From contig JAFLJY010000279.1 of NCBI GenBank assembly GCA_022712755.1, positions 1-45,301 of the forward strand: a stretch of 45,301 bases of DNA. The letters run 5' to 3'. The stretch is from Gammaproteobacteria bacterium (GTDB lineage Bacteria; Pseudomonadota; Gammaproteobacteria; SZUA-229). The position numbers were made by a program, and so were the translations under genes. This document shows positions 1,514 through 18,518 of this stretch, piece by piece. Below the pieces are notes generated by a model. The model worked only from the letters and a program-made list of their open reading frames with translations. It had not been told where the DNA came from and did no database searches. Every line of letters starts with the position of its first letter. Position 1 is the first letter of the stretch.

Positions 1514-3016
1514 ATGACCGCAGCCATAACCGAAACCACAACATATCAAGGGCATATCTGGATTATTGATGATGATGACTCCATACGCTGGGTGTTACAA
1601 AAAGCACTTGAAGGCGCAAATTTTACTGTTACCAGTTTTGACAATGCCAACACTATTTTAGACAGGTTACAGGCAGATAAATTAAGCTCGACTAAATTAA
1701 AGCTGGAACAACCCGATGCCATCATTACCGATGTGCGTATGCCGGGCATTGATGGCCTGGAATTACTGTCCCGGCTGTCATCAGATTACCCGGATTTACC
1801 GGTTATTATTATGACCGCCCACACCGATTTAGACAGTGCCGTTTCCGCTTATAAAGGCGGTGCATTTGAATACCTGCCTAAACCGTTTGACATTGATGAT
1901 GCTGTTGAAGTCACGCAACGCGCCTGCCAACTTGCCAGCAAGAAAAAGTCGTCACATGAAAGTCTGTTAACCACAGAAAACAATACACCAGAAATTATTG
2001 GTGCGGCACCCGCCATGCAGGAAGTTTTCCGCACCATTGGGCGATTATCAAAGTCTGTCATCAGCGTGTTAATTACCGGAGAATCCGGCACTGGCAAGGA
2101 ACTGGTCGCACTCTCACTGCACAAACACAGCCCACGTACCGATAATGCTTTTATTGCATTAAACACCGCCGCCATTCCAAAAGAATTATTAGAGTCCGAG
2201 TTATTTGGCCATGAAAAAGGTGCTTTTACCGGTGCACAGGCACTACGAAAAGGCCGCTTTGAACAGGCCGATGGCGGCACCTTATTTCTTGATGAAATTG
2301 GCGACATGCCCGCTGAACTACAAACCCGTTTATTACGCGTGCTGGCAGAAGGGGTATTTTACCGCGTAGGCGGACACACGCCGATCAAAGTCAATGTGCG
2401 CGTCATCGCTGCCACTCACCAAAACCTTGATGCCCACGTTAAAAAAGGATTATTCCGTGAAGACTTATTTCATCGTTTAAATGTCATTCGCATTCACCTG
2501 CCTGCGCTGCGAGAACGCAGAGAAGATATCCCGGCTTTATTTAACTTATTTTTACAGCGTGCGGTAAAAGAACTCGCCATTGATGATGAATCAAGCGAAA
2601 CCAAAATCATAACAAATGAAACCATGAACTACCTGAGCTCACTTAACTGGCCGGGCAATGTAAGACAGGTCGAAAACACCTGCCACTGGCTAGCGGTGAT
2701 GACACCCGGTCAGGTGGTACATCTATCTGACTTGCCCACAGAGCTGCTTACTGACAATCGCGCTGAAAACCAGGCTGAAAATAATAATGCAACTTTTGAA
2801 TCGAACGAAAATTGGCAAGAAAAACTTAAGTCTAAAGTGCAGCAACAATTACTCTCCGGCGAAACAGATATTTCGACACAAATTATTTGTGATGTTGAGA
2901 GGGTTTTAATAAACGAGGCATTAAAAAAAACCGGCGGCAGAAAAAACGATGCCGCAAAATTGCTTGGCTGGGGCAGGAATACCTTGACGCGGAAAATTAA
3001 GGAGTTGGGGGTTTAA
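1514..3016 (+). CDS. glnG: Sigma-54-dependent nitrogen response regulator NtrC
   Basis: 500-aa ORF. Receiver domain IWIIDDDDSIRWVL...DVRMPG; AAA+ core GESGTGKE with GAFTGA loop; C-terminal Fis-type HTH GWGRNTLTRKIKELG. Confidence 0.92.
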   Translation: MTAAITETTTYQGHIWIIDDDDSIRWVLQKALEGANFTVTSFDNANTILDRLQADKLSSTKLKLEQPDAIITDVRMPGIDGLELLSRLSSDYPDLPVIIMTAHTDLDSAVSAYKGGAFEYLPKPFDIDDAVEVTQRACQLASKKKSSHESLLTTENNTPEIIGAAPAMQEVFRTIGRLSKSVISVLITGESGTGKELVALSLHKHSPRTDNAFIALNTAAIPKELLESELFGHEKGAFTGAQALRKGRFEQADGGTLFLDEIGDMPAELQTRLLRVLAEGVFYRVGGHTPIKVNVRVIAATHQNLDAHVKKGLFREDLFHRLNVIRIHLPALRERREDIPALFNLFLQRAVKELAIDDESSETKIITNETMNYLSSLNWPGNVRQVENTCHWLAVMTPGQVVHLSDLPTELLTDNRAENQAENNNATFESNENWQEKLKSKVQQQLLSGETDISTQIICDVERVLINEALKKTGGRKNDAAKLLGWGRNTLTRKIKELGV

Positions 3017-3077
3017 GTTTTAAGTTTTAAGTTTTAAGTTTTAAGTTTTAAGTTTTAAGTTTTAAGTTTTAAGTTTA
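3011..3077. repeat. Heptanucleotide tandem array, (TTTTAAG) about 9.5 copies
   Basis: Direct reading gives gTTTAAG followed by 8 perfect TTTTAAG units and a partial TTTAC. The first unit contains the glnG stop codon (TAA 3014-3016). Confidence 0.95.
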
Positions 3078-3144
3078 CAAAAAACTTAACTGCCTGGCGG
3101 TATCAATCAAGGGGAAATATTAAACTTATAAAACAGGTAGTTCG

Positions 3145-3225
3145 TAGGTTGGGGTGAGGCACGAACCCCAACAATACCGGCGCGGCTGTTACCAATGTTG
3201 GGGTTCGTGCCTCACCCCAACCTAC
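3145..3225. repeat. REP doublet (REPIN), family 1: GTAGGTTGGGGTGAGGCACGAACCCCAACA x2 inverted
   Basis: Perfect 29-nt inverted arms (3145-3173 / 3197-3225) with a 23-nt spacer. Each arm is a GTAG head plus a 7-bp stem (GTTGGGG/CCCCAAC). A second copy lies at 31706-31782. Confidence 0.85.
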
Positions 3226-3279
3226 TTTCCTACGAGCCGTATCTTCTTAAATAGAGCGGCATGACTTAAAACTTATAAC

Positions 3280-3990
3280 TCAATCACCAATACAACTCAT
3301 ATAAGCCTGCTCAACATCTTCAGCTTGATATTGTTTTTTAAAATCTTCCGGTGAGCCAGAAAAATAAATCTTGCTGTTATGCAACACTGCCATAGTATCC
3401 GCCATCTCTTCTACGTCAGCCAGTACATGTGAACTAAAGAACACGGTAACACCCTGTTGTTTTAACTGTGCCAACTGCTTTTTAAATAACACACGGGCGC
3501 GGGGATCTAAACCACTCATGGGTTCATCTAAAATCAGTAATGATTTACCGCTTAACAAACACGATGCCAAACCCAGTTTTTGCGTCATGCCTTTTGACAG
3601 CTTATTGACCGATTCGCGCATGATGGATTTATCCAGATCCAGTGCATCCAGAACCTGTTCTATTTTTTGCTGGTTACAATCATTGCCATGCAGACGTAAC
3701 ATGTAGTGAATAAAATCCAACGCTTTTAAATGTGCGGGGGGTAAAAATCGGTCGGGGAGATAGGCTATGTTTTCACGCGACTCCACCTTTCGGTGTGAGT
3801 AACCATGGATGCTTATATTGCCTGTATTGATAGCAATTAAATCCAGAATAGCTTTAATCAGGGTGGATTTGCCGCTGCCGTTCATGCCGACTAAACCAAA
3901 AAATTCACCCTGTTTTACTGACAGGTTGATTTTGTCCAGGACTACTTTGTTGGCGTAGTATTTGACGACTTGTTTGCAATTAATAAGCAT
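3280..3990 (-). CDS. ABC transporter ATP-binding protein
   Basis: 236 aa with Walker A GMNGSGKST, signature LSKGMTQKL and Walker B LLILDEP. Confidence 0.9.
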   Translation of the reverse strand: MLINCKQVVKYYANKVVLDKINLSVKQGEFFGLVGMNGSGKSTLIKAILDLIAINTGNISIHGYSHRKVESRENIAYLPDRFLPPAHLKALDFIHYMLRLHGNDCNQQKIEQVLDALDLDKSIMRESVNKLSKGMTQKLGLASCLLSGKSLLILDEPMSGLDPRARVLFKKQLAQLKQQGVTVFFSSHVLADVEEMADTMAVLHNSKIYFSGSPEDFKKQYQAEDVEQAYMSCIGD

Positions 3991-4062: not shown

Positions 4063-4836
4063 TTAGAAATTTCTAAACACTGCCGCACAATTAGAACTTG
4101 GTGCCTGTAACCCGTACAAATTATTGTCAGTTGTATTCTGGCAGGCAGTTACATCTCCAGTTACCCAGCCAGTACCTGCAAGGCCTAACTGCATCGCCCC
4201 TGAACCCGCATTGCCATCATCAACTTTTCTATCTAACTCTGCCAGCACTTCAACAGGGATACCTCTACCGGTAATCAATTCATGTGCATTAATTCCGCCT
4301 TCTTGTCGTAGTGCACCATAATTTAGATTCATGCCAGCACCGAAACCATTATCAGGACAAGTCGTAGGCAAACAACCATAGTCATCTGCAGCAACTGTTG
4401 CCACAACAAAATTTCCGGTTATGTATCCAGCTGCTTGCAAATGGATCCATACATTAGGCCGCTCCGCAGCCTCGCCACTTGCAGCGCCAACCAGACCATT
4501 ACCATTACCATTAGCAGGCGTACCCGGCAAATTAACAGCCGCTTGTGAATAGTCTCCAGGAAACCCACGGTAACGATCCTGAAAACTAAACCAGGCCGCA
4601 GTAATCCCATCAACAGTATTGTTTAAGGCCCTAACCCTGGCAGTATTAATCAACTCCTGTCCTTTTAATACACCGCCTAGTAACAAACCAATGATCACTA
4701 AAACAATAGCAATTTCAATTAAGGTGAAGCCGCCTTGCCTGGCACCGACAAGCCTTTCGCAGGGTGGGCGACTAGTCCAGTTTGCCAGCATTTTTTGTTT
4801 ATTTACTTTTTTCATAACATTCGTCTCTGCCTTCAT
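4063..4836 (-). CDS. Type IV pilin-like protein (prepilin-type N-terminal cleavage/methylation domain); candidate major subunit
   Basis: Class III signal ...GARQGG/FTLIEIAIVLVIIGLL with Glu5. C-terminal Cys pair CQNTT...SSNC (C-x17-C) resembles a pilin D-region loop. Possible starts at 4836, 4815 or 4791 give a 36-, 29- or 21-aa leader. The gene is monocistronic with its own terminator. Confidence 0.8.
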   Translation of the reverse strand: MKAETNVMKKVNKQKMLANWTSRPPCERLVGARQGGFTLIEIAIVLVIIGLLLGGVLKGQELINTARVRALNNTVDGITAAWFSFQDRYRGFPGDYSQAAVNLPGTPANGNGNGLVGAASGEAAERPNVWIHLQAAGYITGNFVVATVAADDYGCLPTTCPDNGFGAGMNLNYGALRQEGGINAHELITGRGIPVEVLAELDRKVDDGNAGSGAMQLGLAGTGWVTGDVTACQNTTDNNLYGLQAPSSNCAAVFRNF

Positions 4837-4945: not shown

Positions 4946-5028
4946 GTAGGCCTGCATAAGGAACGTTGCAGGCAAACTACAACTACAGTGTGCGATACTT
5001 GCCTGCAACGTTCCTTATGCAGGCCTAC
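4946..5028. repeat. REP doublet (REPIN), family 2: GTAGGCCTGCATAAGGAACGTTGCAGGCAA x2 inverted
   Basis: Perfect 30-nt inverted arms (4946-4975 / 4999-5028) with a 23-nt spacer. Each arm is a GTAG head plus a 7-bp stem (GCCTGCA/TGCAGGC). The geometry matches family 1. Confidence 0.85.
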
Positions 5029-5033
5029 AGCTG

Positions 5034-5142
5034 TCATTTCCATCCTTAGGTTCGTTAATCGCACCGCCTTCCTGGCTCTTTGTGCCATAATTGCAAACAT
5101 GGCCGTCCATCCATGGACATAACAGCACGTTCCTGTGCCACT
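5034..5142. repeat. Hairpin-unit repeat element, intergenic copy (head + one 64-nt unit + tail)
   Basis: Head TCATTTCCATCCTTAGGTTCGTTAA, unit TCGCACCGCC...GTCCATCCATGGACATAA, tail CAGCACGTTCCTGTGCCACT. It is near-identical to 18139-18399, which lies inside the mshN-like gene. Confidence 0.85.
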
Positions 5143-5337: not shown

Positions 5338-6087
5338 TTATTTTTCAACACTTTGTCGAGTTTTCGACAATTTTTCTTCAAGTACAATAATTTTTTGTGT
5401 GAGGAATTTTAATTCATAGGGATCGGTTATCACTTTGCTGTCTATCAAGGCGCCAACAAGGATTTTAGCTGCCTGCAACTGCCCCATGTCTTCTAATACG
5501 ATAATCCTCATGTCTTTTGCCCAACGCGGCACATGTTTAGCCGTGGCTTTTTCTGCCAGCGCATCGGCGTACTTTAATGCCAAATCCAAATCCTTGAGTT
5601 CGTGTTTTGCAGTAATGATCACGTGCGCCAGCCAGCGCCAGTACTTATTCGGGTTTTCATTAAATTTCTGGAAAATGTAATCCATCATAATGCGTTGTTT
5701 TTCCGGGTTTTGCACACTGCCATAAACACGAGCCGCCACCAGCATCGGATAATGCCCACGTGGATCCAATTCCAGGATGGTGTCAAGCCATTGCGTTAGC
5801 CGTACATAATCCAGCTGGTGAAAAGAAATGCTGATGCCGGGCTGGTTATCAAATGCCTGCAGCCAGAGATTTAAAAATTTGGAGGCAGCTATGGGTTCTC
5901 CCAGAGAACTCAATACATAAGCATGTGCAGATAAAGGTGGTGGCAGATCTTCTGCCCTGACCGCAACTGGAGGCTGCATATTGTGCCAGACTAGCTGCAT
6001 AATAAGCGCTAACACCAGCAGCACTTTTACCGATGCGGGAACATCACGCACGGGTCTGTCTTTGTCTATAAAGGGGTAAGAAATCAC
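5338..6087 (-). CDS. Hypothetical membrane-anchored helical-repeat protein
   Basis: 249-aa ORF with one N-terminal TM (VKVLLVLALIMQLVW) followed by a helical, TPR-like soluble part. I recognise no family. It lies 9 nt downstream of the ABC-2 permease gene, so it is probably co-transcribed. Confidence 0.55.
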   Translation of the reverse strand: MISYPFIDKDRPVRDVPASVKVLLVLALIMQLVWHNMQPPVAVRAEDLPPPLSAHAYVLSSLGEPIAASKFLNLWLQAFDNQPGISISFHQLDYVRLTQWLDTILELDPRGHYPMLVAARVYGSVQNPEKQRIMMDYIFQKFNENPNKYWRWLAHVIITAKHELKDLDLALKYADALAEKATAKHVPRWAKDMRIIVLEDMGQLQAAKILVGALIDSKVITDPYELKFLTQKIIVLEEKLSKTRQSVEK

Positions 6088-15063: not shown

Positions 15064-16791
15064 TCACATTAATCGCTGTGTTAAATCAATGACGCGGGTG
15101 ACTTCAGTTAATGATGTCCTGCCCTCAAGTACACAACGAACCGCATCATCTGCCAGTGTTTTATAACCGGTTTTTTTTGCGGTCGCTCTTAACTCACCCA
15201 GGGTCGCTCGTTTTGCAATTTGTTCATCCAGTTCATCATTAATTCTTAGTGCTTCAATAATGGCGACTCGACCTTTGTAACCGGTATTGTCACAATGTTT
15301 GCAACCAGCAGATTCATATATACGATGTTTCCTGCTTTCTATTTCGCTGTCAATTTCAATGCCAAGTAGTTTGCTTTCTACCTCGTCGGGAATCGATTTT
15401 ACTTTGCATTTTGCACACAGTAATCGAATTAGACGTTGGCTAATCACGCCAATAATGTTACCGGTCATAATATCGGGCAAGATACCAATATCAAGCAATC
15501 GTGGAAATGTACCAATGGCTGAATTGGTATGCAGTGTGGAAAGCACCTGATGCCCCGTCATGGCTGCACGAAACGCCATGTCTGCAGTATCTTCATCGCG
15601 TATCTCACCGATAAGAATAATATCCGGATCCTGGCGCATCATGGAGCGAATGCCGTTGGCAAAATCCATGCGGGCAACTTCATTAACTGAGGTTTGCCGG
15701 ATCATATCCATTGGGTATTCCACAGGGTCTTCCAGCGTCATGATGTTCACCTGCTCTGACTTCACATAATTTAATAGTGAATAAAGGGTGGTGGTTTTAC
15801 CACTTCCTGTCGGCCCGGTAACCAGAATAATGCCCTCTGGCCTTGCCATCATCATTTTTAAGTCATTTAGGGTGTCTTCATGAATACCCAGCTGATCCAT
15901 CGGCACGATGCCTTTAGCACGATCAAGCACCCGTAAAACGATATTTTCACCATGGGTTGTTGGTTGTGCAGAGACTCGAAAATCGACCCTGTGCCCCTGC
16001 ACCTGCAAACTTAAACGCCCATCCTGCGGTATGCGGGTTTCTGCAATATTCATTTTGCACATGACTTTTAAGCGCACCACAATAGCCGACCAATAGTCTT
16101 TATGTAAGCTGCGAATTTGTCTTAGCACACCATCAATGCGGTAACGCAGACGCAGGAAACCTTCCTCAGGTTCAAAATGAATATCCGATGCTTCTCGTTT
16201 TACCGCGTCGGCTAAAATTGCATCCACCAGACGCACTAGTGGCTGGCTGTACTCATCTTCCGTTGCATCAAGGCTGTGGTAATCAATTTCCCCGGTTTCG
16301 ATTTCATGCAATATGCCGTCAACCGATAATTCGTATCCATAAAACTGGTCAACCGCTTTTTTAATCTCACTCTCACTTGCCACCATGGGGATAATTTCAA
16401 TTTTTCGCCCAACCAGTGCATGCACTCTATCGAGTATTATTAAGTCAGAGGCGTTTTTCATCGCAATGCTTAATTGTTTGCGTGCTTCATCAAAACTTAC
16501 CGGTACGATGGTGTAACGTACAGCTGTTTCTTTTTTAATCAGGTCTATTGCTATTTTATCGGGAATCATACTGCTCAGATCGACACTGGCTATGCCCAAC
16601 ACCTGACTAATCGCATCACGCATAACGGATTCAGAAACAAATCCTAATGTAACCAGCACCTCACCTAGCAGGCGGTGTTTCTTTTTTTGCTCGGTTAAAG
16701 CAATATCAAGCTGGTCTATCGATATTAAACCCTTGTCCAGCAATTGCTGGCCCAGCTTTTTTTTCACATTAATTATGGCAGGTGCTTTCAT
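15064..16791 (-). CDS. mshE: Type IV filament extension ATPase (GspE/PilB family) with MshEN-type N-domain
   Basis: 575 aa. Walker A GPTGSGKTT and a tetracysteine motif CAKC...CKHC. The N-terminus carries tandem motifs KLGQQLLDKGLISIDQLDIALTEQ and RLLGEVLVTLGFVSESVMRDAISQ. Confidence 0.92.
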   Translation of the reverse strand: MKAPAIINVKKKLGQQLLDKGLISIDQLDIALTEQKKKHRLLGEVLVTLGFVSESVMRDAISQVLGIASVDLSSMIPDKIAIDLIKKETAVRYTIVPVSFDEARKQLSIAMKNASDLIILDRVHALVGRKIEIIPMVASESEIKKAVDQFYGYELSVDGILHEIETGEIDYHSLDATEDEYSQPLVRLVDAILADAVKREASDIHFEPEEGFLRLRYRIDGVLRQIRSLHKDYWSAIVVRLKVMCKMNIAETRIPQDGRLSLQVQGHRVDFRVSAQPTTHGENIVLRVLDRAKGIVPMDQLGIHEDTLNDLKMMMARPEGIILVTGPTGSGKTTTLYSLLNYVKSEQVNIMTLEDPVEYPMDMIRQTSVNEVARMDFANGIRSMMRQDPDIILIGEIRDEDTADMAFRAAMTGHQVLSTLHTNSAIGTFPRLLDIGILPDIMTGNIIGVISQRLIRLLCAKCKVKSIPDEVESKLLGIEIDSEIESRKHRIYESAGCKHCDNTGYKGRVAIIEALRINDELDEQIAKRATLGELRATAKKTGYKTLADDAVRCVLEGRTSLTEVTRVIDLTQRLM

Positions 16792-18518
16792 TGGCTCGCT
16801 TTTATCGGCTTGCTTTTATCGGCTAATAGCCTGGACAATTCACTAATGCGCTTTTTCACAGCTTCACGTGAGAAACTACTCTGATTGCTTTTAGACTTAA
16901 GCAAACTCGCTTCATAAAATTTAACTGCTTGCTGTTGTTTGCCCAACTGATCCAAACTCACCGCAAGATTAAAAACATAATCTGCACTTTCATTATTATG
17001 TTGCCAGGCATTAAAATAATATTGTTGTGCAGATTTCCAGTTATTCTGCTGCGCATAAATATTACCCAGTGCAAAATTAAGGTGATGCGCATTCGGGTTC
17101 TTCTGTAGTACAGATAGTAAATATTCTTTATCAGCAGGCGAAGATTGCTTATCAGGCAAATTTGACAGTGCTGCCAGTGCAGCTATCGCAATGGAATCAC
17201 GAGGATCCAGTTCTAATAGTGTTAAATAAATATTCTGTGCTAGCTGATGATTTTTTTCGATAACCGCTATCGCAGCCAACCCTAGCAATGCGTCCCGGTT
17301 GTTTTCTTCGAGTAATAAAACAGATTGATATAATGTTGCGGCTTCACCATAGCGGGCATTTTCATAAGCCAACCAGGCTGTGTCGAGCTGTTCTCCAACA
17401 GGATCAGCCTTTTTTGTTTTTTGTATTGAGACTGCGGATGCTGTGGCTTTTGATGCTGAGACTATTGGTGTTGCGGCTTTATCGCTTGCTAATTTATTTT
17501 TGGCGATCGTATCGGCGTGACTATCTGCCTGCTGTTTCGGGATCGAAGTTGCCTGACTCACCACCGAGTTATCCGCCTGGTTAGTCGCTTGAGTAATAGA
17601 TTGTTCTGCAATAAGTTGCTGCTTTGCAAGCAATACTTTTTCTTCAAGATCGGCATCACTCACCAGGTTACGAATAATTTCTGATTTTACAGGTATTGTT
17701 TCATCGTTTGTTTTAGAACGCATAGCCTGCATTGCAATCTGGTGCTTGCGTTCTAACAGTCTAATTTCTTCCTGCATGTCTTTATAATAAAACATGCCGC
17801 CAGAAACCAGTACGCCGAGGCTAATAATTAAAATGCTGAAAACCAGGGCTCTTCTACCTTTTTTTACTTCACGGTTGGTTTTATATATCAGCATTGATAA
17901 GGCTTCGTCTGACAGGCTTTCGCCACTGTAGCCGTTGCCGTTATTTTTTTTCTCTAAACTTAATCCTTCTGTTTCTATGCTTTTACCGTCATTAAAATGA
18001 GCCTTTTCTAAATGACTATGATTATAGATTTCATCCTCATCAAGCATTAACTCTTCATTGCCATCCTGTCTATCATCCATGCCCTGCAAACTTAATTCTG
18101 CAGTCGCCAGAATCGCTTCATCACTTGCCCGGGTTTTATCATTTGCATCCTTAGGTTCGTTAATCGCACCGTCTTCCTGGCTCTTTGCGAAATACCGTCC
18201 ATCCATGGACATAACCGCACCGCCTTCCTGGCTCTTTGCGCCACTATGTAAACATCGCCGTCCATCCATGGACATAATCGCACCGCCATCCGTGGCTCCT
18301 TGCGAAATACCGTCCTTCCTGGACATAATCGCACCGCCATCCGTGGCTCCTTGCGAAATACCGTCCTTCCTGGACATAACAGCACGTCCGTGTGTCACTG
18401 CTCTCTGCTCAGACATTGATGAAATTTCGTTTATTTCATCCGAACCTGCCTGTTCAAGCTGCAACGCTTTTTGTTTATCGTCCGCCGCTTTTTTCAGGGC
18501 ATCCAGTAGTAAACTCAC
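16788..18518 (-). CDS. mshN: TPR-repeat bitopic assembly protein, MshN-like, carrying an in-frame repeat insertion
   Basis: 576 aa. N-terminus MSLLLDALKKA..., TM ALVFSILIISLGVLVSGGMFYY (about residues 225-245), and C-terminal TPR repeats. Its stop overlaps the mshE start by 4 nt. Confidence 0.7.
   Translation of the reverse strand: MSLLLDALKKAADDKQKALQLEQAGSDEINEISSMSEQRAVTHGRAVMSRKDGISQGATDGGAIMSRKDGISQGATDGGAIMSMDGRRCLHSGAKSQEGGAVMSMDGRYFAKSQEDGAINEPKDANDKTRASDEAILATAELSLQGMDDRQDGNEELMLDEDEIYNHSHLEKAHFNDGKSIETEGLSLEKKNNGNGYSGESLSDEALSMLIYKTNREVKKGRRALVFSILIISLGVLVSGGMFYYKDMQEEIRLLERKHQIAMQAMRSKTNDETIPVKSEIIRNLVSDADLEEKVLLAKQQLIAEQSITQATNQADNSVVSQATSIPKQQADSHADTIAKNKLASDKAATPIVSASKATASAVSIQKTKKADPVGEQLDTAWLAYENARYGEAATLYQSVLLLEENNRDALLGLAAIAVIEKNHQLAQNIYLTLLELDPRDSIAIAALAALSNLPDKQSSPADKEYLLSVLQKNPNAHHLNFALGNIYAQQNNWKSAQQYYFNAWQHNNESADYVFNLAVSLDQLGKQQQAVKFYEASLLKSKSNQSSFSREAVKKRISELSRLLADKSKPIKASQ
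18139..18399. repeat. Hairpin-unit repeat element, amplified intragenic copy (head + 4 tandem units of 51/63/51/51 nt + tail)
   Basis: Units occupy 18164-18214, 18215-18277, 18278-18328 and 18329-18379, and the last two are identical. The head and tail match 5034-5142. The total length is 261 nt, or 87 codons. Confidence 0.9.

Follow-up and report, generated by a model that had tools for sequence, protein, structure and literature searches.

To our knowledge, selfish DNA that enters genes in frame at high frequency is documented essentially only in Rickettsia. The Rickettsia palindromic elements (RPEs), as Ogata et al. (2000, Science 290:347) are summarized in PMC10969869, are selfish palindromes that lie in frame in many housekeeping genes. 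[quoted passage not shown] Here we describe a block of tandem hairpin-forming units inside an mshN-like gene on contig JAFLJY010000279.1 of assembly GCA_022712755.1, from an uncultured gammaproteobacterium. The 45,301 nt of this contig are called the window.

The block is very probably a copy of a lineage-specific, non-coding, hairpin-forming mosaic repeat, which was inserted into mshN and then grew in tandem. The evidence supports an RPE-like selfish element that is tolerated as a protein linker. Like the RPEs, the present repeats are short, hairpin-forming and without a transposase of their own; they lie between genes and also in frame in unrelated housekeeping genes, where they add a conserved peptide that is tolerated at loops or linkers. 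In-frame insertions were found in the genes of MshN, KsgA, BirA, RecO, MurD, NrdB, a DegS-like protein, DnaX, RsmE and an Ogt-like protein, and the DNA forms hairpins, four per composite. The source genome (G000) is a metagenome-assembled genome (MAG) of 2.95 Mb in 320 contigs with a completeness of 82%, and all the genomes compared are metagenome assemblies.

Layout of the block and its host gene

By direct reading, the block at 18139-18399 consists of a 24-nt head, four units of 51, 63, 51 and 51 nt, and a 21-nt tail, 261 nt in total, and units 3 and 4 are identical in sequence. Tandem Repeats Finder (TRF) reported a period of 51 with 2.4 copies and 97% matches at 18258-18379. In an intergenic copy, at 5034-5142, one unit is enclosed by the same head and tail (24 + 64 + 21 = 109 nt), and this copy matches the genic block with a BLAST E value of 2e-20. 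An earlier reading of the sequence alone, hereafter the sequence-only reading, had pointed out this match, and it had the unit lengths, the total and the identity of the last two units right, while its head and tail of 25 and 20 nt were off by one. Its 261 nt, or 87 codons, also describe the block correctly, but the true insert, measured against empty orthologous sites, is 258 nt or 86 codons at 18146-18403. The comparison with orthologues places the TCATTT at the head of the block in the target flank, outside the element, and the insert adds up as 42 + 51 + 63 + 51 + 51 = 258. The features are as follows.

16788..18518, minus strand: mshN-like gene, 576 aa; the protein has a conserved helix at the N-terminus, then a long disordered linker, a transmembrane (TM) helix and a periplasmic TPR domain
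18146..18403, minus strand: whole mshN insertion, 258 nt = 86 codons, boundary uncertain by 1-2 nt, from the G043/L023 and L002 DNA alignments
18139..18162, no strand assigned: head (H module); its first ~7 nt (TCATTTG) are target flank common to empty orthologues
18163..18213, no strand assigned: unit 1, an A-B unit of 51 nt
18214..18276, no strand assigned: unit 2, a long A-B unit of 63 nt (the intergenic long variant has 64-65 nt)
18277..18327, no strand assigned: unit 3, A2-B2 subtype, 51 nt
18328..18378, no strand assigned: unit 4, equal to unit 3, 51 nt (TRF)
18379..18403, no strand assigned: tail, a diverged T module; reverse complement AGCAGTGACACACGGACGTGCTGT, with a GTAG-like head plus hairpin
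5034..5142, plus strand: intergenic copy H-A(long, 64 nt)-B-T, 109 nt, between the open reading frames (ORFs) 4063..4836 and 5338..6087
4946..5028, no strand assigned: GTAG-headed REPIN hairpin of an unrelated family, context only

The last of these adjoins the intergenic copy; it is a perfect, REPIN-like inverted doublet with arms of about 30 bp and folds with -38.8 kcal/mol (z -10.8).

The block lies inside ORF 16788..18518, after the conserved MSLLLDALKKAADDKQ N-terminus and before the TM helix. From the protein search and the orthologue alignment, the orthologues share a near-invariant N-terminus MSLLLDALKKAADDKQKA and the TM helix. Since this conserved N-terminus is found upstream of the repeat, the start codon does not lie downstream of it, which had been one way for the sequence-only reading to fail. 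AlphaFold2, run on the orthologue alignment, predicted a helix at residues 2-25, a stretch with almost no secondary structure and a predicted local distance difference test score (pLDDT) below 50 at residues 26-202, and a long helix from residue 202 that includes the TM segment. The insert, at about residues 42-128, is accordingly placed by the model in a disordered linker, and the alignment and the model agree with the earlier placement between the conserved N-terminus and the TM helix. The length of this linker varies widely among MshN orthologues. The peptide encoded by the insert is MSMDGRYFAKSQEGGAI-like, hydrophilic and Gly-rich, and the junction peptides are ...SEQRAVTHGRAVMSRK... and ...AINEPKDANDK....

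No dedicated MshN profile was matched in NCBIfam, and so the name mshN-like rests on synteny. The adjacent upstream ORF encodes the MshL secretin (TIGR02519, E 2.8e-77), and in related contigs the gene order is MshM (AAA_22), MshL secretin, mshN-like, MshE (MshEN+T2SSE) and MshG (T2SSF). The position between the MshL secretin and the MshE ATPase, the N-terminal motif, the one TM helix and the C-terminal TPR domain, whose repeats match Pfam TPR families, are all as in MshN.

Empty sites and allelic unit number

The whole block is missing from mshN orthologues at 62-74% identity. In the DNA alignments with G043/L023 and L002, the empty site reads ...ATATCCGGTCAGA^TAAATGATGAA... (...GGTCAGA^; the caret marks the junction here and below), and the window reads ...GAGCAGA, followed by the 258 nt and then by AAATGATAAA.... 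No insert was found at this mshN site in the 18 congeners first searched, in G043 or in more than 100 more distant orthologues, and the flanking regions align.

L022, a contig from a Joint Genome Institute (JGI) metagenome, has 95-97% identity with the window along 13.6 kb. Its mshN gene carries the insert at the same two junctions, with two units of 63 and 51 nt versus the 51, 63, 51 and 51 nt found here, and it encodes a protein of 541 aa. The long unit has 63 nt in both mshN alleles, with differing linker sequences, and intergenic long units mostly have 64-65 nt. Orthologues with an empty site, and variation in unit number, had both been anticipated from the sequence; the former are the precise empty sites above, and the latter is the difference between four units here and two in L022, seen in independent assemblies.

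The repeat family and its two insertable blocks

About 85 family loci of at least 50 nt were found in the source genome by BLAST. Alignment of the full copies gave a canonical composite of about 93-94 nt with four hairpin modules, named H, A, B and T. The composite folds with -15.8 kcal/mol against -7.2 +/- 2.1 for its shuffles (z = -4.0), and each A-B unit folds into two hairpins, just as the sequence-only reading had drawn them. A module census by blastn-short, with the reversed genome as control, gave 146 H, 144 T, 90 A-type and 104 B-type matches (484 in 260 clusters) in the source genome and 0 in the control. The architectures are those of a mosaic: lone H, T or B modules, H-T pairs (34), H-A-B-T composites, arrays and a few inverted doublets, the mshN array being the longest of the source genome. 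About 90% of the family sites are outside long ORFs. Therefore a dispersed, mostly intergenic family, for which a genome-wide census had been proposed, is indeed present, and its validated genic units all have 51 or 63 nt.

The family occurs in all 34 genomes of the genus. When an exact 28-mer of the unit was searched in 185,579 species genomes, it was found only in MAGs of uncultured Thiotrichaceae, Thiotrichales and Gammaproteobacteria and in one contig of a MAG labelled Kangiella sp. No Rfam family matches the whole window or the block. Non-genic tandem arrays in congeners comprise 7 perfect 51-nt units (L127, G005:C48:222543-222900) and at least 9 varied units (L128, G040:C32:86900-87400), and thus the unit as such is capable of growing in tandem.

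For 48 loci, the flanks were joined and searched in three close congeners, and base-level alignments were then made. The family was found to have two building blocks: the H-T element, of 42 nt, and the A-B unit, of 51 nt with two hairpins. The A-B insertion is exactly 51 nt in KsgA, BirA, C220 and C182, 51-52 nt in C163, and 65 nt in C15 and C39:311; for example, the empty site of KsgA reads ...GGCAT^TAAAAA... in four congeners. At C227 and C314, the congeners have H joined directly to T (...GGTTCGTA^AACGGCAC...) and the source genome has A-B in between. The canonical composite H-A-B-T therefore consists of an H-T element in which an A-B unit is nested. Paralogous comparisons revealed the same fixed A-B site in other H-T subfamilies, and a second fixed site (...GGCGAA^AAATGTGAG...) lies in an unrelated repeat of ~120 nt. 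The H-T element is itself insertable: RsmE carries an exact 42-nt (14-codon) H-T insertion in the source genome and in G013 (L172 vs L173-L176), which is absent from G005 and G044 by DNA alignment and from G012 and G043 as implied by match length. This distribution may be due to common ancestry, to repeated insertion at a single site or to a precise loss.

The ~120-nt repeat (...CAGATTAAGGCGAA^AAATGTGAGTTTACACGTGTAAAC...) is itself dispersed, with many copies in G000, G013 and G043, and hosts A-B at one internal position. Examples with A-B are:

G000:C15:6511-6575
G000:C10:4490-4541
G000:C39:1665-1716

The A-B unit has no terminal inverted repeats, as its ends ATCGCACC... and ...GGACATA are not inverted copies of each other, and nor are the H/T ends. 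In eleven comparisons of filled and empty sites, the insertions are exact, of 51-65 nt, and no target-site duplication was found beyond a single ambiguous A at most. The junctions are rich in A/T (...WA^A...), with A^A in 7 of the 11, and no fixed motif emerges. A TA-type target duplication, as for Tc1/IS630-like elements, was considered and ruled out, the junctions being inconsistent between sites.

The divisibility of the lengths by three is mostly intrinsic, because the blocks outside genes, too, have 42 and 51 nt. A bias of genic copies towards multiples of three, for which a test had been proposed earlier, holds for the validated units (51 and 63 nt), but a filter acting on genic copies is not its sole cause. 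Module-match lengths carry a noise of +/-1 nt, and the genic cases were therefore judged by base-level alignments.

In-frame copies in other genes

Altogether 34 of the 260 clusters lie inside ORFs of at least 180 aa, and at least 15 copies within genes were validated. NCBIfam confirms in-frame copies in stretches of KsgA, MurD, RecO and BirA that are covered by a profile; in NrdB, a DegS-like protease, DnaX and an Ogt-like protein, the copies are in a linker or an N-terminal region. Family labels first considered for the host proteins of C100 and C129 were dropped, as NCBIfam gave no match. In BirA, insertions of the same family in G013 (L052) are independent, at positions other than those in G000 (G000:C38). 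In the congener G005, the neighbouring gene mshM (L126, G005:C30, ORF 2039-3700, minus strand) has, following its TM segment, an in-frame array of about 2.5 of the 51-nt units (…VDMSMDGRYSARSQEGDAVMSMDGRYSARSQEGDAVMSMDGRY…), an independent event in the same operon and in the same frame as the mshN insert. Two further observations concern these host proteins. The DnaX of G000:C30 has two in-frame H-T arrays (QWHKDVPLTNQRM repeats) at residues ~455-480 and ~597-620, in the tau linker of DNA polymerase III gamma/tau; and at the C-terminus of the BirA proteins of both G000 and G013 there is an extension (…ADMSRDGRP) that derives from the element.

Five of the six frames of the 51-nt unit, among them all three on the strand used in mshN, contain no stop, and about 5% of shuffles reach five or more. 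Within genes, family DNA is read in five reading frames and both orientations in unrelated genes. A single hydrophilic frame (MSMDGRYFAKSQEGGAI) is used by 7 of the 12 validated A-B-bearing genes (binomial p~0.004, an estimate made post hoc), a bias that would fit with selection against frames that are hydrophobic or basic. With about 90% of the sites non-genic, genic insertion is thus the surviving exception.

Origin of the insertion and alternative explanations

The insertion of a repeat into mshN, as interpreted from the sequence at the outset, is borne out by the empty sites, the start codon, the unit number and the census. The course of events that we propose is as follows. An H-(A-B)-T composite would have landed after codon ~42 of mshN in an ancestor of the source strain and the L022 strain, at a site that probably belongs to the disordered linker on the cytoplasmic side, which joins the N-terminal helix to the TM helix. 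The A-B unit inserts cleanly at A/T-rich junctions, most often at the one fixed site inside H-T. Its copies would then have been multiplied or exchanged by slippage, by unequal recombination or by re-insertion beside themselves, which would give four here and two in the relative. The reading frame would never have been broken, since each of the lengths 42, 51 and 63 is divisible by three and no stop interrupts the frame used, and the protein probably tolerates the insert as extra linker because the peptide is hydrophilic and Gly-rich.

Several points weigh against this explanation. The genomes of the source strain and of L022 are both short-read metagenome assemblies, in which the exact unit number is possibly mis-assembled, and the retention of the insert in mRNA and protein is predicted from the ORF. 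As an RNA, the genic block folds no better than its shuffles (z -1.55), and this lends no support to a structural role at the RNA level. The target preference is weak and is based on about 11 sites. Finally, no mobilising enzyme was found among the Y1/RayT and IS110 loci inspected. The source genome has eight Y1-transposase matches, four of them RayT-like, which are:

G000 C144:10149-10517
G000 C238:8524-8892
G000 C47:7038-7397
G000 C114:10626-10955

None of 38 Y1 loci (the 8 of the source genome and 30 of ~100 matches in the genus) is bracketed by H, A, B or T. Module matches occur in only two of the 38: in one, a copy is inserted in a Y1 pseudogene, and in the other, a single B module is located downstream of the RayT gene of C238, within the REP doublet that belongs to this gene. 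The RayT genes of C238, C47 and C114 are bracketed by their own, different REP family (e.g. GTCGGGTTACGC...CCTAC; GTAGGTTGGGGTGAG...), and the RayT-like gene of C144 has upstream only a different GGGCAC hairpin, at the contig end. Association with IS110-type elements was also not found, the four loci in the source genome giving one weak T-module match (19/21). In a search for an autonomous parent, the A...B pairs 150-4000 nt apart in the source genome were separate copies only, with no A...gene...B arrangement, and bona fide IS200-type tnpA genes in congeners are without A/B ends. The Y1-transposase gene fragment at G000:C272:5216-5544 is interrupted by a full H-A-B-T copy.

Single-strand transposition of the IS200/IS605 type is the leading, though unproven, mechanism for the spread of the family, as elements with hairpin ends are inserted by it without a footprint. 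It has a serious rival in spread through recombination or template switching. According to this rival, the units do not transpose but are carried by ectopic recombination, gene conversion or hairpin template switching, and the arrays arise by slippage only. We account this a tentative possibility: no cognate transposase is among the loci inspected, units 3 and 4 have the same sequence, the junction is restored by the unit ends (A...A), arrays occur everywhere and whole H-AB-T composites could spread in this way; yet precise 51- and 42-nt insertions at many unrelated sites without flanking homology are hard to obtain by homologous exchange, and the recurrence of the same fixed site in two other repeat families points to recognition of the site. 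For the growth of arrays as such, we favour slippage or unequal exchange, because of the identity of units 3 and 4 and the long non-genic arrays in congeners.

A-B and H-T might together form a new class of ultra-small non-autonomous mobile elements, moved by an unrecognised single-strand enzyme (Y1/HUH-type or other), whose lengths of 17 and 14 codons and stop-free frames were selected for survival in genes. We consider this doubtful and rather unlikely. If it were true, the element would be adapted to life in genes and would be a continuing source of new loops and linkers across the whole genus.

It is improbable, in our judgement, that the repeat is kept as useful, either as a spacer or interaction motif that is adaptive, varies between strains and tunes how far the MshN N-terminal helix lies from the membrane, or as an mRNA element that regulates the operon. 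The different unit numbers of close strains, the G005 mshM array of the same unit in the same frame and the predominance of the hydrophilic frame would all fit such a role. However, the same unit is found in the unrelated enzymes KsgA, BirA and MurD, all other congeners searched manage without the mshN insert, the RNA fold is unremarkable, and purifying selection against the hydrophobic or basic frames accounts for the frame bias just as well. The sequence-only reading had left the choice between a repeat that is tolerated and one that is exploited. The former is well supported and the latter is not, and we infer that the insert is neutral or tolerated rather than useful.

It is more improbable still that the insertion or its unit number is an assembly artefact in which dispersed repeats were misjoined in a metagenome bin. 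The fragmentation and incompleteness of the MAG, repeats that are often at contig ends and two identical 51-nt units that are difficult for short reads would make such an error conceivable. However, the independent JGI assembly shares both junctions in the same gene, the frame is intact with a normal overlap of the mshN-like gene with mshE at 16788-16791, and the other genic insertions are exact unit multiples with clean flanks. Lastly, that the block is ancestral MshN coding sequence, a 17-residue protein repeat lost elsewhere with the intergenic copies as decayed gene fragments, can hardly be maintained on the strength of an intact ORF segment in two strains and a linker of variable length, given its absence at a precise DNA junction from every other congener and distant orthologue searched, the five frames and both orientations in which family DNA is read in unrelated genes, the large majority of sites outside long ORFs and the fixed positions of the unit inside other non-coding repeats.

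Elsewhere in the window, positions 3012-3076 hold a perfect heptamer array (TTTAAGT x 9.3).

Comparison with known systems

The insertion of the mshN block as a tandem of hairpin units has consequences for annotation: where MshN-type proteins and others of this clade differ in length, repeats have been inserted and no domains gained. The family also offers a natural system for studying how proteins acquire loops and linkers, how far KsgA, BirA and MurD tolerate insertions, and which enzyme moves footprint-free hairpin elements.

Among described repeats, classical MITEs differ from the present family in having terminal inverted repeats and target-site duplications. The PATE-type MITEs derived from IS200/IS605 resemble it more, with subterminal hairpins at both ends and neither terminal inverted repeats nor target-site duplication, but 51 nt is far shorter, no fixed 4-5-nt target motif emerged and the search turned up no tnpA or tnpB gene with the A and B hairpins at its ends. 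The mosaics of REP and BIME sequences and the REPINs, mobilised by RayT Y1 transposases, are alike in their short imperfect palindromes in variable combinations, occasional inverted doublets and the RayT genes in the genome. The likeness to REP is partial at the level of the modules: T has, on its reverse strand GTAGTGGCACATGGATGTGCC, a GTAG-like head and a hairpin, whereas H, A and B are without GTAG. Moreover, no inspected RayT gene is flanked by the family, and its copies also lie inside genes and not in extragenic DNA only.

When compared with QMITEs, ERIC and BOX, which have terminal inverted repeats and mostly extend gene ends, the present insertions are internal, precise and often in conserved domains. 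PARCELs (PMC2996958) share the tandem intragenic repeats, the dyad-symmetric DNA and the strain-variable unit number, but they are protein-domain repeats confined to ORFs, while the present family is mainly non-coding and is read in five frames.

The RPEs remain the closest parallel. Homology between the two families nevertheless appears very unlikely, since there is no Rfam match and the exact 28-mer is confined to Thiotrichaceae-type MAGs. The present family belongs to uncultured Thiotrichaceae-type gammaproteobacteria and is very probably unrelated in sequence; its blocks of 42 and 51 nt are modular and make the element three times smaller, compared with ~100-150 bp for RPEs; its units nest and form tandem arrays inside genes; and ~10% of its sites are genic, against nearly half for some RPE families. 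The present case is thus one of in-frame selfish DNA outside Rickettsia, in an uncultured Thiotrichaceae-type sulfur bacterium, and it is distinguished by smaller blocks that are exact codon multiples, base-precise junctions, nesting, and a unit number that differs between near-identical strains in a type IV pilus assembly gene.

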